A stretch of 64,000 nucleotides of DNA from Escherichia phage PNJ-9. The stretch is from the sequence record PQ100635.1; one strand, written 5' to 3'. The position numbers were made by a program, and so were the translations under genes. Below, piece by piece: positions 6,350 to 58,967 of the stretch; within the stretch, counting starts at the first letter, position 1, and each line of letters begins with the position of its first letter. The notes under the pieces are model-generated. The model saw only the letters and a list, made by a program, of their open reading frames with translations. It ran no database searches and was not told the DNA's origin.

Positions 6350-6351
6350 GT

Positions 6352-6382
6352 AATAAATACCTCCTATAAACGTGGGAGGTAT
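6352..6382 (+). promoter_or_regulatory. RBS-sequestering hairpin with late-promoter-like TATAAA in loop, upstream of e
   Basis: ATACCTCC (6357-6364) pairs with GGAGGTAT (6375-6382) covering the SD; loop TATAAACG. Confidence 0.5.
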
Positions 6383-26046: not shown

Positions 26047-27079
26047 TAATTTAATTCAGGCTCATGTAAAACCGGTCTAAACGGGGAACCTCTCTAGTAG
26101 ACAATCCCGTGCTAAATGTTCTTTTGAACTAAATGCCTAACGACTAACCGTGATGAATGTAGCGGTGTAGAATAGAAGCTAATGCTATTCGAAACGGCCG
26201 GCATCGAAAGATGAAGATATAGTCTAATCTGCATGGCGACATGCAGCAGTCATCTTGTATAAATAAGATTATCTTATGAATACGAGGTGAAACAATGAAA
26301 TGGATAAAAAGACGTTGTACTAAAATAAAAGATAAAGACGCATTTACATACTTAGTTAAGTTTTCTAATGGTGACATTTATATCGGTTATAAAAAATTTA
26401 GAACAATTAAAAACAAGCCCACAAACTGGAAAACTTACACAACGTCATCTAAGTATATAAATGAACGCTTAAAAACTGATACACCTACTAAATGGATAAT
26501 TTTAAAAACATTTGATAGTTATAAAGATGCATTAAAACATGAAGAAGAGGTCATACGTAAATATTTTTATAGCAAAAAATGTTTAAATAAATCCATAGGC
26601 GGTAAAAAGTTTTATAAGCATCCGGATACTGAAGAACATATTCAAAAATTAAGAGATGCTCATAAGGGTAAAGTGTTATCCGAATCTCATAAAAACAATA
26701 TAAAATCTTCTGTAGCTGAATATTATGCTAAAAACGGAAGATCTAAGGAACATGTGCAAAATAATATCAATAGTCGAAAAAGTAAAAAACAAGTATCGAT
26801 AAAGCTTAAAAATAAAACTTTTAGAAGTTTTAAAAAAGCAGCGGAATATTTAAATTGCACTGAAAGTGAAGTCGAAACTCATCCTCTTGTTTTGAGTATT
26901 AAGACTACTATTCATAAAGTTCCTGAATATGTGGTTGTTGACGGTATTAAGTATACGTCTTATATAGAAGCAGCTAAAGCGCTAAATTTTCATCCTAGCA
27001 CTATAAAAGAACGTTGCATATCTATGGACTATCCAAATTTTGTTGTTTCATATAAACGGGCATGAATTTGCGACTCATG
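26047..27079 (+). mobile_element. group I self-splicing intron in nrdD (T4 sunY/nrdD-type), 1033 nt
   Basis: P1: exon UAUGAGU pairs with GCUCAUG with U.G at splice site; conserved core CTAAACGGGGAACCTCTCTAGTAGACAATCCCGTGCTAAAT; P10 CUGAAU pairs with AUUCAG; omega G at 27079. Confidence 0.85.
26295..27065 (+). CDS. intron-encoded GIY-YIG homing endonuclease (I-TevII-like)
   Basis: GIY-YIG-like FTYLVKFSNGDIYIGY; lysine-rich, AT-rich; located 3' of intron core. Confidence 0.8.
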   Translation: MKWIKRRCTKIKDKDAFTYLVKFSNGDIYIGYKKFRTIKNKPTNWKTYTTSSKYINERLKTDTPTKWIILKTFDSYKDALKHEEEVIRKYFYSKKCLNKSIGGKKFYKHPDTEEHIQKLRDAHKGKVLSESHKNNIKSSVAEYYAKNGRSKEHVQNNINSRKSKKQVSIKLKNKTFRSFKKAAEYLNCTESEVETHPLVLSIKTTIHKVPEYVVVDGIKYTSYIEAAKALNFHPSTIKERCISMDYPNFVVSYKRA

Positions 27080-28371
27080 CTGAATATAATGATGAAGTAA
27101 ATACACTTTTCAGCTCTAATGGACAAACGCCTTTTGTAACAATTACATTTGGCACGGGAACTGACTGGACTGAACGAATGATTCAGAAAGCAATTCTGAA
27201 AAATCGTATTAAAGGTCTTGGCCGTGACGGGATAACTCCTATTTTCCCTAAACTTGTTATGTTCGTTGAAGAGGGTGTCAATCTTTATAAAGACGACCCG
27301 AACTACGATATTAAGCAGCTTGCTTTAGAATGCGCAAGCAAAAGAATGTATCCTGATATTATTTCAGTTAAGAACAATAAAGCTATTACTGGTTCTTCAG
27401 TTCCTGTTTCTCCGATGGGCTGTCGTAGTTTCTTGAGCGTATGGAAAGATTCGACTGGTAATGAAATTCTTGATGGACGTAATAATCTTGGTGTTGTAAC
27501 ACTGAATCTTCCTCGTATTGCATTAGATTCTTATATTGGAACACAATTCAATGAACAGAAATTTGTTGAGCTATTTAATGAACGAATGGATCTGTGTTTT
27601 GAAGCTTTGATGTGTAGAATTAGTTCTTTAAAGGGTGTTAAAGCAACTGTAGCTCCTATTCTTTACCAAGAAGGTGCATTCGGGGTTCGTCTTAAACCTG
27701 ATGACGATATAATTGAGTTATTTAAAAATGGTAGAAGTTCAGTGTCCCTAGGATACATTGGTATTCACGAATTGAATATTCTTGTCGGACGTGATATTGG
27801 ACAGGAAATTTTAACTAAAATGAATGCTCGTCTTAAGCAGTGGACTGAAAGAACCGGTTTTGCTTTTAGTTTATATTCTACTCCTGCTGAAAACCTTTGT
27901 TATCGCTTCTGTAAACTTGATACAGAAAAATATGGAAGTGTAAAAGATGTCACCGATAAAGGCTGGTACACTAACAGTTTCCACGTTTCAGTAGAAGAAA
28001 ATATTACTCCATTTGAAAAGATTTCTCGTGAAGCCCCATATCATTTCATTGCAACAGGCGGTCACATTTCTTATGTTGAACTTCCAGATATGAAAAATAA
28101 CTTAAAAGGTCTTGAGGCTGTCTGGGATTATGCTGCACAACATTTAGATTATTTTGGTGTTAATATGCCAGTAGATAAATGTTTTACATGTGGAAGTACT
28201 CATGAAATGACTCCTACTGAAAACGGATTTGTTTGTTCAGTTTGTGGAGAAAGTGATCCTAAAAAGATGAACACCATAAGAAGAACATGTGGTTATTTGG
28301 GAAATCCGAACGAACGCGGATTTAATCTCGGTAAAAATAAAGAAATCATGCATAGGGTTAAACACCAATGA
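27080..28371 (+). CDS. nrdD: anaerobic ribonucleotide reductase NrdD, exon 2
   Basis: Continues frame after intron; C-terminal Zn site CxxC...CxxC and glycyl-radical region RTCGYLG. Confidence 0.85.
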
Positions 28372-28838
28372 ATTATGATAGATTTTATCCTTGCGATTTT
28401 GTGAATGGCCCTGGTTGCAGGGTCGTTCTTTTCGTTACAGGTTGTTTGCATAAATGCGAAGGGTGTTATAATAAATCAACATGGAACGCTAGAAATGGTA
28501 TTCCATTCACTGGTGAAACACTAGAACAATTGATTGAATGTTTGAATAATGATTATATAGAAGGATTAACTATAACCGGAGGAGATCCTCTCTATCCTGA
28601 TAACCGAGATGTTATTCATCGCATTGCTCAAACAGTAAAAAATCTTTATCCCAATAAAAGCATTTGGTTGTGGACAGGATATAAGTTTGAAGATATTAAA
28701 CAACTAGAAATGCTTAAATATGTTGATGTTATTATTGATGGGAAGTATGAGAAAAATCTTCCGACTAAAAAGATGTGGCGAGGATCAGATAATCAGCGAC
28801 TTTGGTCAAATACCGATGGGGTGTGGAAACATGATTAA
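28368..28838 (+). CDS. nrdG: anaerobic RNR activating enzyme NrdG (radical SAM)
   Basis: CLHKCEGC radical-SAM cluster motif; ATGA overlap with nrdD. Confidence 0.92.
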   Translation: MNYDRFYPCDFVNGPGCRVVLFVTGCLHKCEGCYNKSTWNARNGIPFTGETLEQLIECLNNDYIEGLTITGGDPLYPDNRDVIHRIAQTVKNLYPNKSIWLWTGYKFEDIKQLEMLKYVDVIIDGKYEKNLPTKKMWRGSDNQRLWSNTDGVWKHD

Positions 28839-32272: not shown

Positions 32273-32830
32273 ATGACTGAACAAAAACCTAAAAATAACT
32301 ATGTGAATAATAAAGAGCTTCTCGCCGCTATAATCGAGTGGAAAAAGGAGCTCTTAAATAATAAAGACCCAAACAAAATTATTCGTCAGAATGATACCAT
32401 CGGTTTAGCAATTATGCTTATCGCCGAAGGCCTGTCCAAACGTTTCAACTTTTCAGGATATACCCAGTCTTGGAAGCAGGAGATGATTGCAGATGGGATT
32501 GAAGCCTCTATTAAGGGACTTCATAATTTCGACGAAACTAAGTACAATAACCCACATGCATACATAACTCGAGCTTGTTTTAATGCTTTTGTCCAACGTA
32601 TCAAAAAAGAGCGTAAGGAAGTTGCAAAGAAATATAGTTACTTCGTTCATAACGTCTACGACAGTCATGACGATGATATGGTAGCGTTGGTAGATGAAAC
32701 GTTTATTCAAGACATCTACGATAAAATGACGCATTATGAAGAATCCGCTTATAAAGCTCCTGGGGCTGAAAAGAAGGAAGTTGTTAGCGATTCGCCTAGT
32801 TTGGATTTTTTATATGAGGATGACAATTGA
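32273..32830 (+). CDS. 55: late-transcription sigma factor gp55
   Basis: [35 protein letters not shown]...[29 protein letters not shown] matches T4 gp55; 185 aa. Confidence 0.93.
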
Positions 32831-33029
32831 CATCTCTAACTACTTAGAAGAACCTTTTGACGAAGCAATCCCTTATTTGGTAAAACTGTTGGGTCGTGAA
32901 TTTAAAATTAATTTTGACATCGACCCTTTGAACCCACATGACGTGTCATTTTCGATAAATGGGACTCCGGTTGAGTATGAGTTCTGTATTGAAGAGGATG
33001 GACGTTTTTATTTTAATTTAATGAGATAA
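32814..33029 (+). CDS. hypothetical protein
   Basis: Internal ATG of ORF 32736-33029 overlapping end of 55. Confidence 0.45.
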
Positions 33030-33030
33030 T

Positions 33031-33354
33031 ATGACTACCGAGATTATTGAAAATAAAGAAGCAGAAGATGCAGTAGCTAAAATGCTACAAGAAATCCAAA
33101 AGAAAAATGAAGCTGAAGCACGTAAAAAATCCGAAAAGATTCTTAAAAAGAATCGTTTTGAGCTAAACCGTCTTTATGCTCATGCTCAAGAAGCAGCAAT
33201 TCAAAACAACTTCGAAGCTTACGAATATGCTATTAAGAAATCTCGGGATATTCTACGACAACCATATAATGACAAGTTAATTAAAATCCAGTGGGTTACT
33301 ACTCGTCAGGCTATTGAGGACATCATTAATGGCGCTAGTTCAAACAAAGTTTAA
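33031..33354 (+). CDS. hypothetical coiled-coil protein
   Basis: Lys/Glu-rich. Confidence 0.5.
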   Translation: MTTEIIENKEAEDAVAKMLQEIQKKNEAEARKKSEKILKKNRFELNRLYAHAQEAAIQNNFEAYEYAIKKSRDILRQPYNDKLIKIQWVTTRQAIEDIINGASSNKV

Positions 33355-33535
33355 ACGTCTTAATCTGAACGCAGGATTCACCCTTAAATTGGGAGGTCCT
33401 CTTTGTGTTAAAATTTCCGAAAAGGAATATCACGACGGTTCTATTACAGAAATTTGTCCGCCTATTGTAAAGGCAGACCCAAAACAACTCGTGTGGGTCG
33501 ATTCATTTCAAGTTAAGAAATGGTGGAAACGATGA
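33329..33535 (+). CDS. hypothetical protein
   Basis: ATG 33329 with GAGGA upstream; ORF track 33314-33535. Confidence 0.4.
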   Translation: MALVQTKFKRLNLNAGFTLKLGGPLCVKISEKEYHDGSITEICPPIVKADPKQLVWVDSFQVKKWWKR

Positions 33536-33574
33536 GAGAAATCGATTTAGGCATTTTCTGAGAGGTGCTTATGC

Positions 33575-33748
33575 ATGACGAACATCCCGACTTCTGAAAA
33601 TTTCGATAAAATCCGTAAAGGCAAAGCAGAAAGAATGAGACGTTTTAAAGAGTCTTATGATAAAGCTAAAGCCGAAGGAACTATTACATACAAGCCCATT
33701 CGATTTAAAAGTTCAAATGAGCCTCTGTACGGTGTACTATGTGGATAG
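33575..33748 (+). CDS. small basic protein (57 aa), not on ORF track
   Basis: ORF ends at the stem of a strong intrinsic terminator. Confidence 0.35.
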   Translation: MTNIPTSENFDKIRKGKAERMRRFKESYDKAKAEGTITYKPIRFKSSNEPLYGVLCG

Positions 33749-33771
33749 GAACTCTTCGGAGTTCCTTTTTT
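33748..33771 (+). terminator. intrinsic terminator
   Basis: GGAACTC-TTCG-GAGTTCC then TTTTTT. Confidence 0.7.
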
Positions 33772-33817
33772 GCTTTATAAACGGATGATAGAATGAATTA
33801 ACTAATGAGGAAATAAT

Positions 33818-34837
33818 ATGAAAATTTTAAATTTAGGTGATTGGCATTTAGGCGTTAAAGCTGATGATGAGTGGGTTCAATCAATCCAGTTGGATGGAAT
33901 TAAGCAGGCGATAGAATATTCTAAGAAAAATGGAATTACTACATGGATTCAATACGGCGATATTTTTGATGTGCGAAAAGCAATCACGCATAAAACTATG
34001 GAGTTCGCACGTGAAATAGTTCAAATGCTTGATGATGCTGGTATTACCCTACATACTGTTGTAGGAAACCATGATATGCACTTTAAAAATACTTTAACTC
34101 CAAACGCTTCTACTGAGCTTTTAGCTAAATATCCTAATGTTAAAGTATATGATAAGCCTACTACAGTAGATTTTGACGGATGTTTGATTGATTTAATTCC
34201 TTGGATGTGCGAAGAAAATACTGGTGAAATTCTTGAACATATCAAAACTTCATCTGCTTCTTTTTGTGTTGGGCACTGGGAACTGAATGGTTTTTATTTC
34301 TATAAAGGAATGAAGTCTCATGGGCTTGAACCTGATTTTTTAAAGACCTATAAACAAGTCTGGTCCGGCCACTTCCACACAATCTCTGAAGCTGCTAACG
34401 TCAAGTATATTGGGACACCATGGACCCTTACTGCAGGTGATGAAAACGACCCGCGCGGATTCTGGGTATTTGACACTGATGTTGAACGTATGGAATTTAT
34501 TCCTAATGAAACAACATGGCATCGACGAATCACTTATCCGTTTAAAGGCAAAATCAATTATTCTGATTATACTAATCTAGCCTTACGTGTTATAGTATCA
34601 GAAATTGATTCAGAGTTGACTAAGTTTGAATCTGAACTTGAAAAAGTAGTTCACTCTCTTCGTATGGTTTCTAAAGTTGATAACAGTGTTGAATCTGATG
34701 ACGACCAGGAAATCGAGATTAAATCACTTCAAGATATCATTAAAGAATATATTGACGCGATTCCAGATATCTCAGACGAAGACAGAGAAGCGCTGGTCAA
34801 ATATTCCAACGAACTTTATATTGAGGCAACACAATGA
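33818..34837 (+). CDS. 47: recombination nuclease subunit gp47 (Mre11-like)
   Basis: Calcineurin-like phosphoesterase motifs LGDWHLG, GDIFD, GNHD; 339 aa as T4 gp47. Confidence 0.92.
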   Translation: MKILNLGDWHLGVKADDEWVQSIQLDGIKQAIEYSKKNGITTWIQYGDIFDVRKAITHKTMEFAREIVQMLDDAGITLHTVVGNHDMHFKNTLTPNASTELLAKYPNVKVYDKPTTVDFDGCLIDLIPWMCEENTGEILEHIKTSSASFCVGHWELNGFYFYKGMKSHGLEPDFLKTYKQVWSGHFHTISEAANVKYIGTPWTLTAGDENDPRGFWVFDTDVERMEFIPNETTWHRRITYPFKGKINYSDYTNLALRVIVSEIDSELTKFESELEKVVHSLRMVSKVDNSVESDDDQEIEIKSLQDIIKEYIDAIPDISDEDREALVKYSNELYIEATQ

Positions 34838-41067: not shown

Positions 41068-43779
41068 ATGAAAGAATTTTACTTAACGGTTGAACAGATT
41101 GGTGATTCAATTTTTGAACGTTACATCGATTCTAACGGCCGTGAACGTACTCGTGAAGTAGAATATAAACCATCACTGTTTGCTCATTGTCCAGAAAGTC
41201 AGGCCACGAAATATTTTGATATCTATGGTAAGCCGTGCACTCGTAAGTTGTTCGCTAATATGCGTGATGCCTCCCAATGGATTAAACGCATGGAAGATAT
41301 CGGACTTGAAGCACTTGGCATGGACGATTTCAAATTGGCGTATTTGTCTGACACTTATAACTATGAAATCAAATACGACCATACAAAAATTCGTGTGGCT
41401 AACTTCGACATCGAAGTAACATCTCCGGACGGGTTCCCTGAGCCGTCACAAGCAAAACATCCGATTGATGCTATCACCCATTATGACTCAATTGATGACA
41501 GGTTTTATGTATTTGACCTTTTGAATTCTCCATATGGTAATGTAGAAGAATGGTCTATTGAAATCGCTGCTAAGCTTCAAGAACAAGGCGGTGATGAAGT
41601 TCCATCCGAAATTATCGATAAAATCATTTATATGCCGTTCGATAACGAAAAAGAATTGTTGATGGAATATCTCAACTTCTGGCAGCAGAAAACTCCTGTC
41701 ATTTTGACTGGATGGAACGTTGAGTCATTTGATATTCCATATGTGTATAACCGAATCAAGAATATTTTTGGCGAATCTACTGCGAAACGTTTATCACCAC
41801 ATCGCAAGACTCGTGTTAAAGTTATCGAAAACATGTATGGTTCTCGTGAAATCATTACATTGTTCGGTATCTCTGTTCTTGATTACATTGACCTTTACAA
41901 AAAATTCTCTTTTACCAATCAACCATCGTATTCTCTGGATTATATTTCAGAATTTGAATTGAACGTTGGTAAACTGAAATATGACGGCCCTATTTCTAAG
42001 CTTCGTGAAAGCAATCATCAACGATATATTTCTTATAACATCATCGACGTATATCGGGTATTGCAAATTGATGCTAAACGTCAGTTCATCAACTTGAGTT
42101 TAGACATGGGTTATTATGCTAAGATACAGATTCAATCTGTGTTTAGCCCAATTAAAACATGGGATGCTATTATTTTTAATAGCCTTAAAGAGCAGAACAA
42201 GGTGATTCCACAAGGTCGTTCTCATCCGGTTCAACCTTATCCCGGCGCTTTTGTTAAGGAACCTATTCCAAATCGATACAAATATGTAATGAGTTTCGAC
42301 CTTACATCTCTGTATCCAAGTATTATTCGCCAAGTGAATATTAGCCCAGAAACAATAGCAGGAACGTTTAAAGTAGCTCCATTGCATGATTATATTAACG
42401 CTGTTGCTGAACGTCCTTCTGATGTGTACAGTTGTTCTCCTAACGGCATGATGTATTATAAAGACCGTGACGGTGTTGTTCCAACTGAAATCACTAAAGT
42501 CTTTAATCAACGTAAAGAACATAAAGGTTACATGCTTGCAGCTCAACGTAACGGTGAAATAATTAAAGAGGCATTGCATAATCCTAATCTTTCTGTTGAT
42601 GAACCATTAGATGTTGATTATCGTTTCGACTTCAGTGATGAGATTAAAGAAAAGATTAAAAAGTTGTCTGCTAAATCTCTTAATGAAATGTTGTTTAGAG
42701 CTCAACGTACTGAAGTTGCAGGTATGACTGCCCAAATTAACCGTAAATTGCTTATCAACTCACTTTATGGTGCGCTTGGCAACGTTTGGTTCCGTTATTA
42801 TGATTTGCGTAATGCTACTGCAATCACAACATTTGGTCAAATGGCTTTACAGTGGATTGAACGTAAAGTTAATGAATATCTGAATGAAGTTTGTGGTACA
42901 GAAGGTGAAGCTTTCGTTCTTTATGGTGATACAGACTCTATTTACGTATCTGCTGATAAAATTATCGATAAGGTTGGTGAATCTAAATTCCGTGATACCA
43001 ACCATTGGGTAGACTTCTTAGATAAGTTTGCACGTGAACGTATGGAACCAGCTATTGATAGGGGTTTCCGTGAAATGTGTGAATACATGAACAATAAACA
43101 ACACTTAATGTTCATGGACCGAGAAGCTATCGCTGGGCCTCCACTCGGTTCTAAAGGTATTGGTGGATTCTGGACTGGTAAGAAACGTTATGCATTAAAC
43201 GTGTGGGATATGGAAGGTACTCGTTACGCTGAGCCTAAACTCAAAATTATGGGTCTAGAGACTCAGAAATCTTCGACTCCTAAAGCAGTACAGAAAGCTC
43301 TTAAAGAATGTATTCGTCGTATGCTTCAAGAAGGTGAAGAATCATTACAAGAATATTTTAAAGAGTTTGAAAAAGAATTCCGTCAATTGAATTATATTAG
43401 CATCGCGTCGGTATCTTCTGCGAATAACATTGCTAAATATGATGTAGGTGGATTCCCTGGTCCCAAATGCCCGTTCCATATTCGTGGAATTCTGACGTAT
43501 AACCGGGCTATCAAAGGTAATATCGATGCACCGCAAGTTGTAGAAGGTGAAAAAGTATATGTTCTGCCTTTACGTGAAGGAAACCCATTCGGTGATAAAT
43601 GTATCGCATGGCCTTCTGGTACTGAAATCACAGATTTAATTAAAGACGACGTACTTCATTGGATGGACTACACTGTTCTCCTTGAGAAGACATTTATTAA
43701 ACCACTTGAAGGATTCACATCAGCAGCGAAACTCGATTACGAGAAGAAAGCATCTCTTTTCGATATGTTCGATTTTTGA
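41068..43779 (+). CDS. 43: DNA polymerase gp43 (family B)
   Basis: 903 aa; exo motifs FDIE, YNIIDV; pol motifs DxxSLYPS, YGDTDS. Confidence 0.96.
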   Translation: MKEFYLTVEQIGDSIFERYIDSNGRERTREVEYKPSLFAHCPESQATKYFDIYGKPCTRKLFANMRDASQWIKRMEDIGLEALGMDDFKLAYLSDTYNYEIKYDHTKIRVANFDIEVTSPDGFPEPSQAKHPIDAITHYDSIDDRFYVFDLLNSPYGNVEEWSIEIAAKLQEQGGDEVPSEIIDKIIYMPFDNEKELLMEYLNFWQQKTPVILTGWNVESFDIPYVYNRIKNIFGESTAKRLSPHRKTRVKVIENMYGSREIITLFGISVLDYIDLYKKFSFTNQPSYSLDYISEFELNVGKLKYDGPISKLRESNHQRYISYNIIDVYRVLQIDAKRQFINLSLDMGYYAKIQIQSVFSPIKTWDAIIFNSLKEQNKVIPQGRSHPVQPYPGAFVKEPIPNRYKYVMSFDLTSLYPSIIRQVNISPETIAGTFKVAPLHDYINAVAERPSDVYSCSPNGMMYYKDRDGVVPTEITKVFNQRKEHKGYMLAAQRNGEIIKEALHNPNLSVDEPLDVDYRFDFSDEIKEKIKKLSAKSLNEMLFRAQRTEVAGMTAQINRKLLINSLYGALGNVWFRYYDLRNATAITTFGQMALQWIERKVNEYLNEVCGTEGEAFVLYGDTDSIYVSADKIIDKVGESKFRDTNHWVDFLDKFARERMEPAIDRGFREMCEYMNNKQHLMFMDREAIAGPPLGSKGIGGFWTGKKRYALNVWDMEGTRYAEPKLKIMGLETQKSSTPKAVQKALKECIRRMLQEGEESLQEYFKEFEKEFRQLNYISIASVSSANNIAKYDVGGFPGPKCPFHIRGILTYNRAIKGNIDAPQVVEGEKVYVLPLREGNPFGDKCIAWPSGTEITDLIKDDVLHWMDYTVLLEKTFIKPLEGFTSAAKLDYEKKASLFDMFDF

Positions 43780-43819
43780 TATAATGTCATGGACGGTAAA
43801 CTAATTAAACGAGAGAAAT

Positions 43820-44455
43820 ATGAAAACTACTCCTATTACTATCGCTATTGACGCAATCATAAAACAATCTTCTTCTTTGGCCGCTATGGCCAAAGTAATT
43901 AGTCAAAACCCTGCTCGTTATAATGCTATTCTAGAAACTCTTCGACGCCCGGGACTTAGTAATTATGAAAGCCGAGTAATTATTACAGGTGTTGGTAAGA
44001 ATGCTAATATTGCAACTAAAGCTTCTGAGACATTTGCTTCACTCGGTATCCCGAGTATGTACTTGAACACTGGGCATTATTCTCACGGTGATGCAGGATT
44101 CATTGCGCCTAATGATGTGTTGATTCATATTAGTCGTTCTGGTAAAACTGAAGAAATGATAGGCGTGGCTAAGCATCTTAAAATGATTCGTCCGAACGTC
44201 AAACAGATTCTGTTGCATTGTAACCCAGACATTCCACAAGAATACGAAGCTCTTTTTGATTATACGTTCTGTACAGGCATCGCAGTAGAGGTTGATGAGA
44301 ATTCTCTGGCTCCGACCATGTCCACTACATTGTTGTTAGCGCTTATCGATACGTTTGCTATCAACCTTTCGTCTGAACGTGGATTTACCTCTAATGACTT
44401 CCTTAAGTTCCACCCTGGCGGTGCACTAGGTGCCATGTTACGAGGCGAACAATGA
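43820..44455 (+). CDS. SIS-domain sugar-phosphate isomerase (KdsD/GmhA-like; arabinose-5-phosphate isomerase candidate)
   Basis: GVGKNANIATKASETFASLGIPS...HGDAGFI...DVLIHISRSGKTEE follows KdsD-type SIS pattern; single SIS domain, 211 aa. Confidence 0.7.
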   Translation: MKTTPITIAIDAIIKQSSSLAAMAKVISQNPARYNAILETLRRPGLSNYESRVIITGVGKNANIATKASETFASLGIPSMYLNTGHYSHGDAGFIAPNDVLIHISRSGKTEEMIGVAKHLKMIRPNVKQILLHCNPDIPQEYEALFDYTFCTGIAVEVDENSLAPTMSTTLLLALIDTFAINLSSERGFTSNDFLKFHPGGALGAMLRGEQ

Positions 44456-44595
44456 AAGCAATAACAATAGGACTTTTACTATTGATGCTTGTCATGACTA
44501 TCTACTGGAGCTTAACGGCTCCAGTAATGATTCCGACTCTTATAATCGGATGGATTATGATTGGACTACAAGCAAAGTATGAATGCTTTAACTAG
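44452..44595 (+). CDS. small membrane peptide (47 aa), not on ORF track
   Basis: ATGA overlap with SIS gene stop; hydrophobic. Confidence 0.4.
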   Translation: MKAITIGLLLLMLVMTIYWSLTAPVMIPTLIIGWIMIGLQAKYECFN

Positions 44596-44636
44596 AATAG
44601 TGTACAATACTCCTACTTACCAATGAGGACCACAAC

Positions 44637-46325
44637 ATGAAAAAAGCTGTTATTCTTGGTGCTGGACTGGCAACTCGTTTGTATCCAATAACGCATCATA
44701 TTCCTAAGGTGCTTGTTAACTATAAACAAGACACTATTCTGAGCAATTTGTATACAATTTATTCTGACCTTGGCGCAGATGAAATTATTGTAGTAGTTCA
44801 TTCAAAATTTGCTGAAACTGTTCGAGCTTATTGTGAGCAAGAAGGGTTCAATGTGACTATTCGTACAGTTGATGAAGCGTATGGTTCTGCTTATGCTCTT
44901 GCTAAATTGCACAAAGATTTAGACGGCCATAATGTAATTGTTAACTGGTGTGATATTATTCCTGATTTTGGTTCGTGGTCTTGGAATGTTAACGCAATCT
45001 ATGTTAAGGGTGACGAATGTCGATATAATTTCGACGGTGAAAATATCACTAATGTAGGTTCAACAGGTGGTAATGTTGTAGGAATTTATCAGTTCAAAGA
45101 CTGGGAATTCTATATGGGTTCTACTGATGAGGAAATTCATGAATACTGCAAAGGACGTGATTTCGTAGAATTCCTTTACGGCAGCGCATTCAATAAATCA
45201 GAGCTTATGAATATCATCGACCTTGGTGATATGCCTAAACTTGAAAAAGCTCATGAAGTTCGTGAACTTAATCGTAGTTTTAATGCAGTTGAAATTGGCG
45301 AAGAAACGGTAACAAAGATTGCTTTAACAGAACAGGGCGTTGCACTTCAAAAAGATGAAGTCAATTGGTATAAGAAAGTTAAATCAGATTCAGTTCCACG
45401 GATTGTAAGTTATCATCCTGGCGGCCACTTTATTATGGAACGTATTAAAGGTAAGCCAGCATTTGAATATATTAAATCCAAATCAAGTCTTGCTCGTCCA
45501 CAAATTGTTGATGCAATTTTAGATGCACTGAAATTCAGCACAGACACTTATTTTGTAAGTCCTGAAACTGTTCGTCGTGATTTCACTAAAGAATTCTATA
45601 CTAAAGTTATTGATCGTTGTGAAAGTATTCAACCATTGATTGATTCATTTGGTAAAATCACACATGTGAACTACACTAAGATTGGGCGTCTGAAGCCAAT
45701 GTTGAAACAAGCTTTAGAACACCTTATTCGTTATCATAACCGTTCTCAGGGACAGTACTCTGTTATTCATGGTGACCCGAACTTCAGTAATACTATGATT
45801 ACTGATAATGGTGAAGTCAAGTTTATCGACCCTCGTGGATATTTTGGTGAAACCAAGATTTATGGGCCAAAATTGTATGATGAAGCTAAAGTGCTTTACG
45901 CTGTTTCAGGTTATGATGAATTCAACGCTAATCCGACTTGGGGACAGTTTACTATTGATGAAACAACTTGTAATGTGACTATTAACATCAATCCGTTAGT
46001 TTACAAATATGGAAAGATGAGTTCGTTTAATGAGTATCATCATTTGGCTGTAGCAATTATCTGGATTGCATTAGGTGGTTATTTCAAGAATAATCCACTT
46101 AAAGCGGTAGCCGCATATTATAAAGGTATGGAACTTCTGACTAAGCAATTACGTAATATGGGCCGTGTACTTCAAGACGGCTCTATTAGTTATGATGTAG
46201 CAGAACCTGTAACGGCTACTCTGATTACAAAAAATCCTGGTAAATGGGTACTAACTGATAAAGAAACTGGTGTTTCTTATCGTCCAATCGGTGGCGATAT
46301 CACTCATCAATGGGAACGAATCTAA
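44637..46325 (+). CDS. bifunctional sugar-1-phosphate nucleotidyltransferase / APH-type kinase
   Basis: N-terminal NTase motif ILGAGLATRLYP; C-terminal kinase motifs IHGDPNFSN and FIDPRG (Brenner motif). Confidence 0.7.
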   Translation: MKKAVILGAGLATRLYPITHHIPKVLVNYKQDTILSNLYTIYSDLGADEIIVVVHSKFAETVRAYCEQEGFNVTIRTVDEAYGSAYALAKLHKDLDGHNVIVNWCDIIPDFGSWSWNVNAIYVKGDECRYNFDGENITNVGSTGGNVVGIYQFKDWEFYMGSTDEEIHEYCKGRDFVEFLYGSAFNKSELMNIIDLGDMPKLEKAHEVRELNRSFNAVEIGEETVTKIALTEQGVALQKDEVNWYKKVKSDSVPRIVSYHPGGHFIMERIKGKPAFEYIKSKSSLARPQIVDAILDALKFSTDTYFVSPETVRRDFTKEFYTKVIDRCESIQPLIDSFGKITHVNYTKIGRLKPMLKQALEHLIRYHNRSQGQYSVIHGDPNFSNTMITDNGEVKFIDPRGYFGETKIYGPKLYDEAKVLYAVSGYDEFNANPTWGQFTIDETTCNVTININPLVYKYGKMSSFNEYHHLAVAIIWIALGGYFKNNPLKAVAAYYKGMELLTKQLRNMGRVLQDGSISYDVAEPVTATLITKNPGKWVLTDKETGVSYRPIGGDITHQWERI

Positions 46326-46711
46326 TGCACCGTGTAAAAAACATGCTTAATCTTTGTTTTGATGTCGATGATTGCATCACGGAATGGAATAACAATCGTG
46401 ATTACGTGAACTTCAAACCAGACGTCGAAATGGTGTCTGCCATTAATGCCCTATATGATGCAGGGCATACAATAACGCTTTACACTGCTCGCGGTATGAA
46501 GTCAGTCGGTCCTGGTCGTATAGCAATTGACATTCTCCCAAGTCTGATTCAGAACTTGGCAAACATTGGATTGAAGTACCATAATTTGCTAACACATAAA
46601 CCAGTATATGATTGGATTATCGACGACAAAGCTATGCGTCCTGACGAATTCAAAGCTCTTATGAATAAAGGCGAATTCGAAACATTTAAATCATATAAAC
46701 CGAATCTATAA
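46325..46711 (+). CDS. HAD-superfamily phosphatase
   Basis: HAD motif I FDVDDCIT near N-terminus, motif IV WIIDDK; TAATG overlap. Confidence 0.65.
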   Translation: MHRVKNMLNLCFDVDDCITEWNNNRDYVNFKPDVEMVSAINALYDAGHTITLYTARGMKSVGPGRIAIDILPSLIQNLANIGLKYHNLLTHKPVYDWIIDDKAMRPDEFKALMNKGEFETFKSYKPNL

Positions 46712-46765
46712 TAATTTAAGTAAGACCTGCAAAAACCATCGCAACAATTAACGCGAGATGCAAAA

Positions 46766-47926
46766 ATGAATACCTTTAAAATCGGAACGAATTTTGATTT
46801 AGCTCTTCTTGATAAAATCGTAGAGCTCAATAAAACTTATCCTAATAGCTTGATAAACGAAGTATACGGCTCTACCAGAGAAATGGCTTTTGTAGCAGCC
46901 AGACCTGATTTTAGGCTTCCTGACGTTGACAAAAAGATGTTAGAAGATTACGTTAAACGTTGTAACGAATTAGGTATTTGCTTTAACTATACACTCAACA
47001 CGATAAATCCTGGTTCAAAAAGAGAACTAGTTGAGTGGAAGAAGAAAGCTATTCAGGATTATGTTCAGTATCTTTGGTCAATAGGCGTATGGCGTATTAC
47101 TATCGCTAACCCTGTTGTTATGGAAATTGTTCGTGAAGTCAATAAAGACATTGAGATTGAAGTTTCAACAATTCTACATGTCGATGCTGTAACTCAAATC
47201 AAATACTTGCATGACCAATATAATATCAAAAAGGTCTGCTGTGGAATTCATAAGAACCGTTCAGTTTCTTTCCTGAAGCGTGCAGCAGAGTTTTGTAATA
47301 AGAACAATATAATATTTGAAGTTCTTGTAAATGAGTTCTGTTCTAATGCTGGTAAAGGGTATACAACACATTGTAGCTATCGTGACTCTTGCTATATTTT
47401 CCATAGCACCGATGTTACAGTAGATGATGCTAAATCCTTAAACGGATATCCAATGCAGCACTGTATTAAAGCTCGTGATACAGACCCATTTAACTGGTTG
47501 AGAACTCGTTTTGTTCGTCCTCAAGATTTGAAACTTTATAATGATATTGGTATCACTCAATTCAAAGTTTCAGGACGTACAGGTAGCACAGACTACATTT
47601 TGAAAGTTCTTGAAGCTTATGCTTCCGAAAAATTTGAAGGTAATTTGTTGGAATTGTGGAAGCCTTTAGAGACCATTTTCACTCTTGAAAATGAGACCGA
47701 GTTTTCACATACGGTAAATATTGAAACCTCTTTGTTAGATGGCTTTTTAGAAAAAAGGTGGTTCAGACATCCAGATTTCGATTGTGCTAATGAAATCTGC
47801 GGGACGACGTGTACATATTGTGAAAGATATTATAAACGTCAATTATCTAAAAACGGGTTAGCAGAAAACTCTATATCTATTATTGATATAACTAACTCTG
47901 ATGACGCTTTGAGGTACCCGGAATGA
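46766..47926 (+). CDS. Cys-rich protein of unknown function (candidate metal/Fe-S enzyme)
   Basis: 386 aa; C-terminal CANEICGTTCTYC (Cx4Cx3Cx2C) plus Cys pairs; no family assigned. Confidence 0.6.
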   Translation: MNTFKIGTNFDLALLDKIVELNKTYPNSLINEVYGSTREMAFVAARPDFRLPDVDKKMLEDYVKRCNELGICFNYTLNTINPGSKRELVEWKKKAIQDYVQYLWSIGVWRITIANPVVMEIVREVNKDIEIEVSTILHVDAVTQIKYLHDQYNIKKVCCGIHKNRSVSFLKRAAEFCNKNNIIFEVLVNEFCSNAGKGYTTHCSYRDSCYIFHSTDVTVDDAKSLNGYPMQHCIKARDTDPFNWLRTRFVRPQDLKLYNDIGITQFKVSGRTGSTDYILKVLEAYASEKFEGNLLELWKPLETIFTLENETEFSHTVNIETSLLDGFLEKRWFRHPDFDCANEICGTTCTYCERYYKRQLSKNGLAENSISIIDITNSDDALRYPE

Positions 47927-48066
47927 TTTCTAGAAAAACTTTTAACCACCAACTTAACGAAGAGATTTTGACTATGAAAATTAACAGCAACGAACAAATT
48001 CTTAAAAAGGCCCTGATGGGCCTTTTTAAAACTAAAGCGGCTAAAGTGATTAAAGAACCTGTTTAA
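47923..48066 (+). CDS. possible small ORF (47 aa), not on ORF track
   Basis: ATGA overlap with upstream stop; contains a terminator-like hairpin, so may be non-coding. Confidence 0.25.
   Translation: MISRKTFNHQLNEEILTMKINSNEQILKKALMGLFKTKAAKVIKEPV
48009..48027 (+). terminator. terminator-like hairpin in 47927-48204 gap
   Basis: GGCCC-TGAT-GGGCC flanked by A-run and T-run. Confidence 0.45.
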
Positions 48067-48160
48067 TTGGAATACTACGCTGATGCATTTCTTCATAGTG
48101 TTCTTGGAAGTATCGATGCTGAAGCTTTACGTTATATCAACATTGTCAAGAAATTCAAAT

Positions 48161-48185
48161 AAGCTTTACGAATTGAGTATATAAT
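48161..48185 (+). promoter_or_regulatory. middle-promoter-like element upstream of 42-like gene
   Basis: AAGCTTTA, 11 bp, TATAAT. Confidence 0.45.
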
Positions 48186-48204
48186 AAATTGTATTGAGGT
48201 AAAC

Positions 48205-48921
48205 ATGGGAAAACATAACACAATGAAATATATCAAAGCCGCAGATTTTCAAACCGCATTTAAAGCAGTCAATCGTGAAATTTTAGAAAACCCGGAATTC
48301 GTAACTGATTCTCGTATTGGACGTTGTAATGAAATTGGGTCTATGACAGTAGTTGTTGATACCCCTTCATCATTCAAAATGACCGACCCACGTATTAACC
48401 GCATCTCTTATGAATATGCCGAAGACTTCTGGAAATTTATGATTTCTGGTGGTACTGATGCAGAAGAAGCATTTAAGGCATATCCTAATGTCGCTAAATT
48501 TATTTCTAAACCAAAATCAGATGCTTTGCCTGCGAACTTCAACACTTTCTATGGTCCTCGCATTGCGGCCCAATTACCAACTCTTCTAAAAGAACTTAAA
48601 GAGAAACCTAACTCTCGAAGAGTTGTGTTCCAAATTCTAGAAAGTTCTGATCAGGCTTTGCTTGATTCGGATGAAACGCTTGAATATCCATGTACTGACT
48701 CAGTGACTTATTATATTCGTGATGGTAAGCTTTATACCCACTGTCATATGCGTTCTCAGAACTGTGCTGTTGTTATGCAGTTGGATTTTTATCTCCAAGG
48801 AAAATTACTTCATTATATCGCTAACGAATGTGGTGTAGAAGTTGGTGATTATACTCATACCATGGTAAGTGCCCATGTGTTTGAACGTGATTTTGATTAT
48901 GTTAAAGGATTCCTTGACTAA
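48205..48921 (+). CDS. 42: thymidylate-synthase-fold pyrimidine hydroxymethylase (divergent gp42-like)
   Basis: PNSRRVVFQI, catalytic-Cys segment PCTDSVTYYIRD, MRSQN...DFY align to T4 gp42; much more divergent than neighbours. Confidence 0.65.
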   Translation: MGKHNTMKYIKAADFQTAFKAVNREILENPEFVTDSRIGRCNEIGSMTVVVDTPSSFKMTDPRINRISYEYAEDFWKFMISGGTDAEEAFKAYPNVAKFISKPKSDALPANFNTFYGPRIAAQLPTLLKELKEKPNSRRVVFQILESSDQALLDSDETLEYPCTDSVTYYIRDGKLYTHCHMRSQNCAVVMQLDFYLQGKLLHYIANECGVEVGDYTHTMVSAHVFERDFDYVKGFLD

Positions 48922-49820
48922 TGGCTATTTTCCGCGTACCTATCTTGAGTATGCGGTCTTATGAAACTGGTCAGTATGCTATCCTTAAGGATGGCAACTT
49001 CCAACTTCATTTGCACCGTGCTAATCCAGGTGATGTAATTACATATCCACGTAATGCATCTGATATTAAAGAATGTGAACGTCTTTTCCCAGAATTTAAG
49101 TTTGTTCCATTATGGTATAAAGATAACGCATATAACACTCGTAAATATTTCTGGTCTGAAAATGAATTTGTGGTTGATTCATTAATTGCTTATTATGATT
49201 GTGATTTTCTAATCACAGATATCACTGGATATGACGGCGCTTTTGATGTGGAATTCAATTTCAATATCACTGCAGACCCTAATAAACCACGTTTTTATAT
49301 TGACGAATTCTTAAAAACCGATATGTTGTCGGTTAATCGTTCACTTCAAACTACTGTGTTGAATAAACGTCAAAAGGAAGTGCTGGTTAACGCTGGTGCC
49401 GATGGTAATAAGATTATCGTAACCCAGAAAGTTATACGTCCTTCCATCATGCAGCGTCTTGTAGGTGATTTGGCTCCTATTCATCTAGATGGTATTTTTC
49501 ATCCATTTCGAATTAGTGACCCGTGCTATCGTTTTGAACAAGTGGTTGAATGTGCAATTCAATTAGGTCAACCGCTTTATATAACCGATCCAAATAATAG
49601 CTTCGACAGAAATAAGTATCCTGAAGAAGCGCTGATTCGAATTTTTAAACCAACTAAAACTGAGTACTATCAAATTCTTAAAGGACGTCCGAAGATTCAA
49701 TATTTCGAAAATCCTGAAGAAGTATTTCATCCAGGTCTTGGCGAGTTCATCTACTTTAACGCTTTAATTTCTTCGCCGTATAATATACCTAAATATGAAG
49801 ATGTTGTAATCGAGGAATAA
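48921..49820 (+). CDS. hypothetical protein at beta-gt locus (candidate DNA sugar transferase)
   Basis: 299 aa; TAATG overlap with 42-like; no similarity to T4 beta-gt noted. Confidence 0.55.
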   Translation: MAIFRVPILSMRSYETGQYAILKDGNFQLHLHRANPGDVITYPRNASDIKECERLFPEFKFVPLWYKDNAYNTRKYFWSENEFVVDSLIAYYDCDFLITDITGYDGAFDVEFNFNITADPNKPRFYIDEFLKTDMLSVNRSLQTTVLNKRQKEVLVNAGADGNKIIVTQKVIRPSIMQRLVGDLAPIHLDGIFHPFRISDPCYRFEQVVECAIQLGQPLYITDPNNSFDRNKYPEEALIRIFKPTKTEYYQILKGRPKIQYFENPEEVFHPGLGEFIYFNALISSPYNIPKYEDVVIEE

Positions 49821-49821
49821 A

Positions 49822-50370
49822 ATGGCTAAAATTATTTTAGTAGATGGCCCGGATAATGCTGGTAAAACAACTTTCATTAATGACATAATGGAAATTAGTG
49901 AAAGATATGTAAAGATTGATTTCCCTAAACGAACAGTTGATGGACGTTTCGATGTTAAGTCTCGAAATGAAGTTGGCTGTTTCGAAACGATGTTGAATTA
50001 TTTAGACCCTACTAAGATTTATCTGTTAGACCGTGGATATATTAGTAACTGGGTTTATGGACGTATTCGACAAGATGCGGACTCGGTTCTTGACGTTTAT
50101 GAACAGGATTATGTTCGTCTTTGCCAAAACCATGATGTGTTCACAATTATTTTAACACGTAACGAAATGACTGAAAGTTTTGAAGACGACCTTATTACTT
50201 TGTCTTCGTTCGGTTTTAATACAGTCATTTCATATTTTGAAGAGTTTGCAATTCATAACGAAATCCAAACGTATCAATTACTTAATCATGATGGTGCTAA
50301 CAAAGTTATAGGATTTAATGCAAGCGAACGTAATAATTTGATTACAGAAATTATCAAATGGGCTCGTTAA
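49822..50370 (+). CDS. thymidylate-kinase-like P-loop nucleotide kinase
   Basis: P-loop VDGPDNAGKTT and DRGY (DRY-like) motif. Confidence 0.6.
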   Translation: MAKIILVDGPDNAGKTTFINDIMEISERYVKIDFPKRTVDGRFDVKSRNEVGCFETMLNYLDPTKIYLLDRGYISNWVYGRIRQDADSVLDVYEQDYVRLCQNHDVFTIILTRNEMTESFEDDLITLSSFGFNTVISYFEEFAIHNEIQTYQLLNHDGANKVIGFNASERNNLITEIIKWAR

Positions 50371-50469
50371 GAGCCTGTTTAAAGTTTTAAATGCTGTATA
50401 ACCCTTAGTATATAATCGTCTTATCTTTTAAACATGAGTAAAATATAATGATGCCTATGGAAAAATACA

Positions 50470-54726: not shown

Positions 54727-55095
54727 ATGAAAAAATTAATCGCTTTAGCAATGGTATTTGGATTAACCGGATGTGGTGCCCACGGCTTTATCCCTAATAA
54801 CGTTGGCCAACTGATTTACAATCCGAATGTTAAACAGTATGACCAACCTAAAGTTGAAGTGGAAGACCCGGTTACTGTAGGTAATCGAATGATTCAAGCT
54901 GATGCCCATGCTCAACGTTATCGTGACTCTGATACTGTAGCATTATCAAAAGAACAACGCGTTAAAGAACATTGTCTACAGGCTACTGAAATCGCATTCA
55001 TTCGCTATGTTGAAACAACTGGTAAAGAGCCTACCCAGAAACAAATCGCGAATAACTACGTCCGGTGTATTGAACGTTTAAACAAATTTAATTAA
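54727..55095 (+). CDS. lipoprotein
   Basis: Signal peptide with lipobox LTGC. Confidence 0.6.
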   Translation: MKKLIALAMVFGLTGCGAHGFIPNNVGQLIYNPNVKQYDQPKVEVEDPVTVGNRMIQADAHAQRYRDSDTVALSKEQRVKEHCLQATEIAFIRYVETTGKEPTQKQIANNYVRCIERLNKFN

Positions 55096-55155: not shown

Positions 55156-55404
55156 ATGGAATTATTCGTAGCTAGTTCAGTAGCAGTTTTAATCGCAGGT
55201 ATTGGTTCAATCGTCATTTATATGTTGCCTTGGGTAATCGCACTTATTCGTGGCACAAAAAGCACAACAGCAATCTTCTTTGTATCTTTACTCTTTAACT
55301 GGACGATGATTGGTTGGATTGGAACTTTAATTTGGTCTATCGTTGCCGAAAAGAAATCTGCTCAGCAGCCTCAACAAGTAATTATTATTCGCGAAAAAGA
55401 ATAA
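55156..55404 (+). CDS. small membrane protein
   Basis: Two TM helices. Confidence 0.55.
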   Translation: MELFVASSVAVLIAGIGSIVIYMLPWVIALIRGTKSTTAIFFVSLLFNWTMIGWIGTLIWSIVAEKKSAQQPQQVIIIREKE

Positions 55405-58445: not shown

Positions 58446-58967
58446 ATGGCACACTTTAACGAATGTTCACAACTTATTTCTGGTGTTGATAAAGCAGAAG
58501 AAGCTTATTTTAATGCTCTGATTCACGAAGATAAAGACCCTCTGCAGGTAATGCTTGATATGCAGAAATCTTTACAGGTTCGTCTGGCAAATGACAAGCC
58601 TGAACATAACAAACATCCTGATGAATTGGCTACTGCTGGTGATGTTGTTGATTGGCTGCGTAATCAGAAAGATTATATTGATGATGAATTCCGTGAACTG
58701 CTGACTTCACTTGGTGGTATGAGCAATGGTGAAAAAGCCGCTAGCTCTGTATGGAAGCCGTGGAAGGCACAACATGCTGAATATCGAAATCGTCGTATCG
58801 ATGAACTGTCTCCTGAAGACCAGCTTGAAATTAAATTTGAAATGATTGATATTCTGCATTTCGTTCTAAATATGTTCCAAGGTCTAGGACTTTCTGCTGA
58901 AGAAATCTTCAAACTGTATTACCTGAAAAACCAACACAACTTTGAACGCCAGGATAATGGTTACTAA
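58446..58967 (+). CDS. 56: dCTP pyrophosphatase gp56
   Basis: MAHFNECSQLISGVDKAEEAYFNALIHEDKDPLQVMLDMQ matches T4 gp56. Confidence 0.93.
   Translation: MAHFNECSQLISGVDKAEEAYFNALIHEDKDPLQVMLDMQKSLQVRLANDKPEHNKHPDELATAGDVVDWLRNQKDYIDDEFRELLTSLGGMSNGEKAASSVWKPWKAQHAEYRNRRIDELSPEDQLEIKFEMIDILHFVLNMFQGLGLSAEEIFKLYYLKNQHNFERQDNGY

Follow-up and report, generated by a model that had tools for sequence, protein, structure and literature searches.

Escherichia phage PNJ-9 (sequence record PQ100635.1) carries an island of genes that, with a probability of about 90%, represents the sugar-activation half of the arabinosyl-5-hydroxycytosine DNA hypermodification published for RB69-like phages. The window, meaning the whole stretch of DNA that was analysed, is 64,000 nucleotides long, and the island (43820-47926) holds four co-oriented genes on the plus strand: a SIS isomerase, a nucleotidyltransferase/kinase fusion, a small HAD phosphatase and a cysteine-rich protein of 386 amino acids (aa). 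It is bounded by the DNA polymerase gene (41068-43779) and a homolog of thymidylate synthase (TS; 48205-48921). An original prediction, made from the sequence alone, had named four consecutive plus-strand genes here; all are present, and an open reading frame (ORF) of 47 aa that it did not list lies among them (44452-44595). The pathway and the arabinose assignment have already been published and are not new, and the PNJ-9 island is one more member of a known system of phage DNA hypermodification, a phenomenon that matters for the evasion of restriction and CRISPR, for phage therapy and for phage engineering. A correction follows for annotation, as genes of this type labelled 'dCMP hydroxymethylase/thymidylate synthase' would be 5-hydroxy-dCMP synthases and the base arabosyl-5-hydroxycytosine. 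There is also a lead: the cluster's most conserved gene is of the U32 family, whose members are linked to O2-independent hydroxylation, and in other phages it is accompanied by chorismate mutase. The genes on which the argument turns are:

43820-44455, plus strand: SIS isomerase, 211 aa, homolog of RB69 gp55
44637-46325, plus strand: bifunctional nucleotidyltransferase/kinase, 562 aa, homolog of HY126 AfhE and RB69 gp52:53
46325-46711, plus strand: HAD-type phosphatase, 128 aa, homolog of HY126 AfhF and RB69 gp51
46766-47926, plus strand: Peptidase_U32-family protein, 386 aa, homolog of RB69 gp50
48205-48921, plus strand: TS-fold enzyme, predicted 5-hydroxy-dCMP synthase, 100% identical to RB69 gp48
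48921-49820, plus strand: glycosyltransferase, 299 aa, homolog of RB69 gp46:47
49822-50370, plus strand: P-loop thymidylate-kinase-like nucleotide kinase, 182 aa, homolog of RB69 gp45, followed by uvsX
58446-58964, plus strand: gp56 dCTPase homolog, outside the island, located by tblastn with RB69 gp56

Arabinose activation and the modified base

The first protein of the island matches the SIS domain of Pfam (E 1.7e-10) and the NCBIfam models KpsF/GutQ (E 2e-32) and KdsD (E 1e-30). Its nearest solved relatives are the arabinose-5-phosphate isomerases of PDB entries 3etn (E 5.6e-25), 2xhz (the SIS domain of KdsD, E 6.5e-19) and 5uqi, and it is 99.5% identical to the HY126 protein. The earlier description of a KdsD-type SIS isomerase holds for the SIS domain and the KdsD match. 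The full-length KdsD architecture (SIS plus tandem CBS) was not found in these 211 aa, which cover model positions ~47-202 of 328 and score 107 bits against a KdsD cut-off of 505, also falling below the full-length cut-off for KpsF/GutQ. The protein resembles the SIS-only isomerase 3etn rather than the CBS-bearing KdsD, and is predicted to be a SIS-only D-arabinose-5-phosphate isomerase acting on ribulose-5-phosphate.

The 562-aa protein has an N-terminal match to Pfam NTP_transferase (E 9.6e-10), with a further match to PDB 1jyk, and residues ~240-410 give weak Pfam matches to APH, fructosamine-kinase and EcKL families. All five sequence motifs quoted in the original prediction are found in the expected proteins, with GAGLATRLYP at aa 8, HGDPNFSN at aa 378 and FIDPRG at aa 396 of this protein, and FDVDDCIT at aa 12 and IIDDK at aa 98 of the HAD protein, counted from its ATG at 46325. 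Judged by its 99.6% identity to HY126 AfhE, the C-terminal APH-fold kinase is predicted to convert arabinose-5-phosphate to arabinose-1,5-bisphosphate, and the N-terminal nucleotidyltransferase to form UDP-arabinofuranose from arabinose-1-phosphate and UTP. The HAD protein has no Pfam match, and is recognised by the NCBIfam model TIGR01689 for capsule-biosynthesis phosphatases (EcbF-BcbF, E 3.7e-13), by the near-identical PDB chain 9iqw (E 6.3e-87) and by 1xpj (E 4.8e-10). It shares 99.2% identity with HY126 AfhF and would remove one phosphate from arabinose-1,5-bisphosphate to leave arabinose-1-phosphate. An alternative upstream ATG (46310) would give a protein of 133 aa; the annotated HY126 start matches 46325. 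The isomerase, AfhE-like and HAD genes are encoded together, and the gene order of HY126 is kept.

Arabinose was found in RB69 DNA by Thomas 2018, where ORF055c and the re-sequenced fusion ORF53_52c were nominated for UDP-arabinose synthesis within an eight-gene module running from polymerase to uvsX (PMC6024577). HY126 AfhE has since been described as a kinase of arabinose-5-phosphate (A5P) as well as a UDP-arabinose pyrophosphorylase, and AfhF as a phosphatase that depends on Mg and has the 1,5-bisphosphate as its substrate (He 2026, as summarised in PMC13326640). The proposed combination of isomerase, kinase, phosphatase and nucleotidyltransferase in a heptose-like 1,5-bisphosphate route agrees with this published work on near-identical proteins, as do the entry through D-arabinose-5-phosphate from ribulose-5-phosphate and the guess that the sugar is arabinose. 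That phage DNA is the target was also well judged, given the arabinose in RB69 DNA (PMC6024577, PMC13326640).

The original prediction went astray at the acceptor base. The TS homolog matches Pfam Thymidylat_synt (E 1.9e-15) and the CMP hydroxymethylase MilA in PDB (E 1e-11), but also the near-identical chains 9iqc, 9ir2 and 9iqu (E about 1e-160; 1.6e-161 for 9iqc), and it shares 100% identity with RB69 gp48, a 5-hydroxy-dCMP synthase that binds flavin and takes its oxygen from 18O2 (Lee 2026, PMC13326640). Its product is 18O2-labelled 5-hydroxy-dC, of 243 Da, co-eluting with a standard, and not 5-hydroxymethyl-dC (PMC13326640). Because of this identity, the product of 48205-48921 is predicted to be a flavin- and O2-dependent 5-hydroxy-dCMP synthase and not the hydroxymethylase that had been proposed. 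The proposed hydroxymethyl-pyrimidine acceptor falls with it, since nuclear magnetic resonance (NMR) and mass spectrometry (MS) identify the base of RB69 DNA as mono- or di-arabosylated 5-hydroxycytosine in ether linkage (PMC13326640).

The two genes adjoining the TS homolog are 98-100% identical to their RB69 and HY126 counterparts. The 299-aa glycosyltransferase (phrog_3891, E 3e-156; 99% identity to HY126) corresponds to RB69 gp46:47, which has been proposed as the first arabinosyltransferase (PMC13326640), and the 182-aa kinase (phrog_761, E 5e-45; 100% identity to HY126) to RB69 gp45, for which a structural assignment is given in Table 1 of the same paper. At the more distant locus, the gp56 homolog shows 97% identity over 173/173 aa to RB69 gp56, the dCTPase of the pathway (PMC13326640 Table 1), and is predicted to supply dCMP and exclude dCTP in the same modification pathway. 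The glycosyltransferases of phage DLP3 use UDP-arabinofuranose, and its DNA contains tri-arabinosylated 5-hydroxycytosine (5hoC) (PMC13326640).

The pathway as a whole would run as follows, each step having been demonstrated for HY126, RB69 or DLP3 proteins or proposed in the same papers, and being carried over to PNJ-9 because of the 98-100% identity of its proteins to those of HY126 and RB69. Ribulose-5-phosphate from the pentose phosphate pathway would be isomerised to D-arabinose-5-phosphate by the SIS protein, phosphorylated at C1 by the C-terminal kinase of the 562-aa enzyme to give the 1,5-bisphosphate, relieved of its 5-phosphate by the HAD phosphatase, and joined by the N-terminal nucleotidyltransferase to yield UDP-arabinofuranose. 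In parallel, gp56 would deliver dCMP, which the TS homolog would hydroxylate at C5 with flavin and O2, and kinases and polymerase would bring 5-hydroxy-dC into DNA. The 299-aa glycosyltransferase would then place arabinose on the C5 oxygen, and a second glycosyltransferase, encoded outside the window, would add further arabinose.

Nothing in the sequence of the window contradicts this scheme, and the island is clearly not a chance run of ORFs, because the 6.7 kb around it (43700-50400), matched in 241 phage records, are at least 80% covered in 151 of these and match at 95-99% identity in 155. Two points weigh against it: the arabosyl-5-hydroxycytosine chemistry was measured on RB69 and others and is carried to PNJ-9 by sequence, and the first arabosyl transfer is still without in vitro reconstitution (PMC13326640).

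Two other explanations of the island were weighed. In one, UDP-arabinose would be transferred to hydroxymethylcytosine produced by a gp42-type dCMP hydroxymethylase, a reading suggested by the resemblance of the TS-fold gene to CMP/dCMP hydroxymethylases and by the description of the RB69 base in these terms by Thomas 2018 (PMC6024577). A gene product 100% identical to an enzyme that yields 5-hydroxy-dC, and NMR and MS data on RB69 DNA that show an ether link to 5-hydroxycytosine (PMC13326640), leave this very improbable. Slightly less probable still is that the genes form an auxiliary metabolic module whose target is not phage DNA but a polysaccharide of the host surface, be it Kdo, capsule or lipopolysaccharide (LPS). 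The best family names are indeed of capsule or Kdo type (KpsF/GutQ/KdsD and the EcbF-BcbF phosphatase), but the genes sit inside a block of DNA-replication and nucleotide-metabolism genes, they form a single cluster with the 5-hydroxy-dCMP synthase, the DNA glycosyltransferase and the nucleotide kinase, and the island has neither a Kdo-8-phosphate synthase nor a lipid-linked transferase; arabinose is, moreover, present in RB69 DNA. We hence retain the arabinosyl-5-hydroxycytosine pathway as the reading of the island.

A possible role for the U32-family protein

The fourth gene of the island, which the original prediction described as cysteine-rich and listed with the other three, is real, but its product is of the U32 family and Fe-S type, and can be dispensed with in UDP-arabinose synthesis (see below). 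It matches Peptidase_U32 (PF01136) with E 6.3e-11 and a score of 42.4 bits, where the gathering score is 22.4. When 26 subfamily members are combined in a profile, hhalign aligns it with Escherichia coli UbiU/UbiV/RlhA/TrhP at a probability of 95.9% (E 6e-9), although pairwise identity to these proteins is 17-22%. Its AF2 model is of high confidence (pLDDT 89.1, pTM 0.89) and finds the U32 protein 5d88 as its best Foldseek match in PDB and otherwise generic TIM barrels, which say nothing on function beyond the family; a sequence search of PDB gave no match. Ten cysteines are invariant down to 47% identity (C158, C177, C192, C203, C209, C233, C340, C345, C349 and C352). In the Fe-S region they are spaced C192-x10-C203-x5-C209-x23-C233, with C203, C209 and C233 mapped by hhalign to the UbiU ligands C169, C176 and C232 (the MAFFT mapping differs), and the C-terminal CX4CX3CX2C is an invariant extra of the phage U32 subfamily. 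Among E. coli members, RlhA is required for 5-hydroxycytidine (ho5C) in rRNA and TrhP for 5-hydroxyuridine (ho5U) in tRNA, and UbiU/V hydroxylate ubiquinone precursors under anoxia with prephenate as oxygen donor and [4Fe-4S] clusters (PMC10990095; PMC6747719). The family is still without an in vitro assay (PMC10990095).

We tentatively suggest, at not quite even odds of being both correct and unreported, and by analogy with these relatives, that the U32 protein (46766-47926) is an O2-independent, prephenate-dependent pyrimidine C5 hydroxylase, a link not drawn in the literature covered here. It would make the same 5-hydroxypyrimidine as the TS homolog with prephenate as the oxygen donor, and would back up the O2- and flavin-dependent synthase during anaerobic growth of the host, a facultative anaerobe. 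Many uncultivated phages would have no other hydroxylase to supply 5-hydroxypyrimidine for glycosylated DNA. Prephenate is suggested because chorismate mutase or DAHP synthase accompanies U32 in other phages. Such a pairing of U32 with the TS homolog would parallel UbiI/H/F and UbiU/V, TrhO and TrhP, and the phage ribonucleotide reductases NrdAB and NrdDG; the genes for the anaerobic ribonucleotide reductase are present in the window (nrdD 25509-28368, nrdG 28368-28835). A back-up role would also explain why gp48 alone sufficed in aerobic heterologous expression (PMC13326640). The RlhA and TrhP pathways are cited in that paper without linking gp50 to their family, and the Thanatos and Durham papers leave the U32 protein unmentioned. 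Literature searches that paired phage with U32, chorismate mutase or prephenate gave nothing on an RB69 gp50-type protein, He 2026 and Mahler 2025 lying outside this check. If the suggestion is true, it would account for the way in which gut phages maintain, in the absence of oxygen, a DNA modification that needs O2, would provide a soluble nucleotide substrate for the U32 family, and would mean that phages rewire the shikimate pathway as an oxygen-donor supply for DNA modification.

The evidence comes largely from conservation and neighbourhood. When cluster proteins are compared with those of phages from Enterobacter, Serratia, Klebsiella, Yersinia, Shewanella and Morganella, conservation is highest for U32:

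U32 protein: 79-87% identity
TS homolog: 72-82%
SIS isomerase: 72-74%
HAD phosphatase: 61-89%
Glycosyltransferase: 47-68%
AfhE-like enzyme: 43-72%
Kinase: 38-72%

In 56 phage records, a chorismate mutase of 75-79 aa (Pfam CM_2, E 2.4e-10) is encoded in the stretch from U32 to the TS homolog, most often as the next gene following U32. The hosts of these phages include Klebsiella, Serratia, Yersinia, Enterobacter, Edwardsiella, Erwinia, Proteus, Pectobacterium, Shewanella, Providencia, Morganella and Kosakonia, and coliphage EcS1 is also among them. In Thanatos-1 the cluster is rearranged and U32 and chorismate mutase are still adjacent.

Homologs of U32 at 40-58% identity are common in metagenomes, and on large phage contigs the gene follows a dCMP deaminase and lies near genes for thymidylate kinase, UDG, a MazG-like protein and a DnaE-type polymerase. 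A scan of IMG/VR covered 47 U32 loci, 15 of them T4-like and 32 other, with 10-kb flanks on both strands. The TS homolog lies just downstream of U32 in 15/15 T4-like loci (hmmsearch E 1e-131 to 1e-150), and a clear TS-like ORF was found within 10 kb in 0/32 of the others. The neighbours in these 32 loci include a Tmk-like kinase (23/32), a homolog of the 299-aa glycosyltransferase (22/32), an AfhE-like enzyme (16/32), a KdsC-like HAD phosphatase (15/32), chorismate mutase, DAHP synthase or their fusion (11/32), and a SIS isomerase (9/32). At five loci the genes form a compact series (dUTPase-like, kinase, glycosyltransferase, U32 and polymerase), in which U32 occupies the place that gp42 has in the T4 scheme.

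Several individual loci are worth recording beside these counts. The sole marginal match to the TS-homolog profile among the 32 (E 0.013) is at 5491-6357 of locus L034. Phage-borne shikimate-pathway genes lie one to two genes from U32 at L048 (8332-9387), L032 (9384-10130) and L064 (10968-11423), their types being a Bacteroidota-type DAHP synthase-chorismate mutase fusion, a DAHP synthase by itself or a chorismate mutase. A bacterial-looking scaffold of 86 kb from an ENA metagenome (L014, 7135-17428) has a U32 homolog at 48% identity among genes for an NT5C deoxyribonucleotidase, an NMN transporter, a deoxynucleoside kinase, a radical SAM/SPASM protein, a second, faint U32 and a nucleoside deoxyribosyltransferase, and this cluster may be a cellular pathway for a modified nucleoside.

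Phages that do without U32 bear on its function from two sides. The DLP3 cluster as described has none (PMC13326640). In Acinetobacter phage DLP1 the order is SIS isomerase, AfhE-like enzyme, HAD phosphatase, TS homolog, glycosyltransferase and kinase, with TS directly after HAD and no U32, and the Acinetobacter records contain an AfhE homolog in 57 cases and U32 in at most two. Acinetobacter is a strict aerobe, and the missing U32 in its phages is consistent with an anaerobic back-up hydroxylase. Since DLP1/DLP3 and JS98 lack U32, neither UDP-arabinose synthesis nor arabinosylation as such requires the protein. A rule that U32 is present when, and only when, the host is a facultative anaerobe was considered and rejected, as it fits the Acinetobacter phages and fails for JS98-like coliphages; the pattern counts as supporting evidence at most. 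In JS98 itself (L003, 5062-10175), imm is kept between the polymerase gene and the cluster, and both the SIS isomerase and U32 are absent; arabinose-5-phosphate is presumably supplied by host KdsD or GutQ.

These JS98-like coliphages, in which genes for the TS homolog, the kinase, the glycosyltransferase, AfhE and HAD occur without U32, leave the connection with host physiology imperfect and count against the hydroxylase proposal, as do several further points. The canonical motif CX6CX15CX3/4C is not kept as such in the phage protein (the UbiU variant being CX6CX16CX38C). Chorismate mutase is absent from the window and from other Mosigviruses; in E. coli, prephenate comes from PheA and TyrA. 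The TS homologs of the 32 other loci could sit outside the searched 10-kb flanks, and the DAHP synthase-chorismate mutase fusions on contigs are Bacteroidota-like, a group with both aerobes and anaerobes, and so do not settle the matter of anaerobiosis. Finally, RB69 gp50 is listed as a 'sugar or heterocycle reductase', in a table only (PMC13326640 Table 1).

This last label belongs to a competing explanation, in which U32 is not a hydroxylase but a sugar or heterocycle reductase, an enzyme for a step of UDP-arabinose synthesis, or a true peptidase. Database labels lend it some weight: besides the legacy family name of peptidase and the label collagenase, BASEL records carry 'putative enzyme involved in UDP-arabinose biosynthesis', and the deoxypentose reported in the Thanatos paper could fit a reductive step. 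We consider it unlikely, though by no means negligible. AfhE and AfhF account for UDP-arabinose formation, as far as He 2026 is summarised in PMC13326640, and DLP3 tri-arabinosylates 5hoC without any U32. Those U32 proteins that have been studied are tied to hydroxylation and not to proteolysis (PMC10990095; PMC6747719), the association with chorismate mutase and DAHP synthase points to prephenate, and U32 occurs in the compact dUTPase-like/kinase/glycosyltransferase modules without sugar-synthesis genes. Another reason for a phage to carry chorismate mutase would be CmoA and carboxy-SAM (PMC12783734); no CmoA-like gene was seen in the annotated clusters viewed. The prephenate-dependent hydroxylase remains, on this balance, the reading of U32 that we favour.

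Locus layout and small open reading frames

The window belongs to an RB69-like Mosigvirus, judging by the 98-100% identity of each cluster protein to HY126 and by the TS homolog being 100% identical to RB69 gp48. At the DNA level, the 6.7 kb are 98.5% identical to vB_EcoM-ZQ3, 98.4% to HY126 and 97.0% to RB69. GC content is flat over the region (0.34-0.42), and hence there is no mark of recent foreign insertion. A scan of the island for promoters and terminators gave counts no higher than in shuffled sequence.

Neither of the T4 glucosyltransferases, which had been predicted to be missing, lies in its usual slot. The place of beta-gt, from the TS homolog to uvsX, is occupied by the 299-aa glycosyltransferase and the 182-aa kinase, and the alpha-gt slot (32827-33818), between gp55 (32273-32827) and gp47 (33818-34834), keeps a-gt.2 and is too short for alpha-gt. 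In RB69, a-gt.3 to a-gt.5 are also annotated in this slot. The island does not, however, replace imm and imm.1, as had been supposed; both are relocated, imm at 55156-55401 and imm.1 at 54727-55092. In T4 these genes lie between genes 42 and 43, whereas in PNJ-9 they lie next to the primase/spackle region as in RB69.

Two small ORFs accompany the cluster:

44452-44595, plus strand: hydrophobic membrane-type ORF, 47 aa, between the first and second island genes
47923-48162, plus strand: homolog of RB69 ORF049c, 79 codons, broken by a stop, with an open part of 47 aa (47923-48066)

The first overlaps the end of the isomerase gene (phrog_3610, E 4.5e-27), is 100% identical in HY126, and has homologs at 39-64% identity in Entb_45, LC53, JS98 and phiR1-RT (Enterobacter, Serratia, JS98 and Yersinia phages). 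It overlaps RB69 ORF054c, which is annotated there with a shorter start, and it is not mentioned in the published accounts of the pathway, He 2026 being outside the check. The second has an in-frame TAA (48064-48066) where RB69 has Gln, and matches phrog_8601 over positions 1-47 of 79. ORF049c of HY126 has an earlier stop, following codon 40, and has lost the frame downstream of it. Among close relatives this gene seems to be either dispensable or in decay. The possibility that the remnant is a decayed chorismate mutase, its slot having 79 codons like the mutase of Entb_45, was examined and rejected: it has no CM_2 match, and it is related to phiR1-RT g049, which lies between U32 and a separate chorismate mutase. 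Inside the remnant, a hairpin with a GC-cored stem of 14 bp (AAAAAGGCCC-TGAT-GGGCCTTTTT, 48000-48031) scores as terminator-like on the minus strand only.

Elsewhere in the window, nrdD is split (25509-26045 / 27085-28368) by a group I intron, which Rfam RF00028 recognises at 26015-26246 (74 bits, E 1.3e-18), with a homing endonuclease-like intron ORF of 256 aa (26295-27065); RB69 nrdD is uninterrupted.

Comparison with known systems

The closest counterpart is the cluster of RB69 (gp45-gp55) and HY126 (Afh), which has the same genes in the same order with proteins 98-100% identical. The differences are at strain level: gp52/53 and gp46/47 are split by sequencing errors in the RB69 record and intact in PNJ-9, and ORF049c has a nonsense codon in PNJ-9, is intact in RB69 and has an earlier stop in HY126.

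With NDP-heptose synthesis (GmhA/HddA/GmhB/HddC) the island shares the conversion of a ketose phosphate to an aldose phosphate and then a bisphosphate, the removal of the distal phosphate and nucleotidyl transfer, as well as a SIS isomerase and a HAD phosphatase. The heptose pathway, however, acts on a heptose and delivers its product to LPS or S-layer glycan, whereas the PNJ-9 island would serve a pentose and DNA. Its kinase has the APH/choline-kinase fold and is fused to the nucleotidyltransferase, with no GHMP kinase detected, unlike HddA. Orthology was not found either, as the HddC model gives 22 bits against a cut-off of 300 and the phosphatase matches TIGR01689 and not GmhB. By these comparisons the island appears to work like the NDP-heptose pathway without being a member of it.

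The T4 system for glucosylated hydroxymethylcytosine (gp56, gp42, gp1 and the alpha- and beta-gt) uses the same slots, and a dCTPase, a TS-fold dCMP enzyme, a kinase and glycosyltransferases are common to both. T4 gp42 hydroxymethylates with folate, whereas the TS-fold enzyme of PNJ-9 would hydroxylate with flavin and O2, as does RB69 gp48 (PMC13326640), and the sugar in T4 is host UDP-glucose while in PNJ-9 it would be arabinofuranose made by phage enzymes.

With the E. coli U32 proteins (UbiU/UbiV, RlhA and TrhP), the phage protein has in common the U32 domain. Its invariant cysteines lie in the Fe-S region with a spacing of their own, three of them being placed on UbiU ligands by hhalign and otherwise by MAFFT. 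It lacks the C-terminal extensions of RlhA and TrhP, and its presumed substrate would be a deoxynucleotide or DNA. Just as UbiUV and TrhP have O2-dependent counterparts for the same product in UbiIHF and TrhO, the phage U32 co-exists with an O2-dependent TS homolog.

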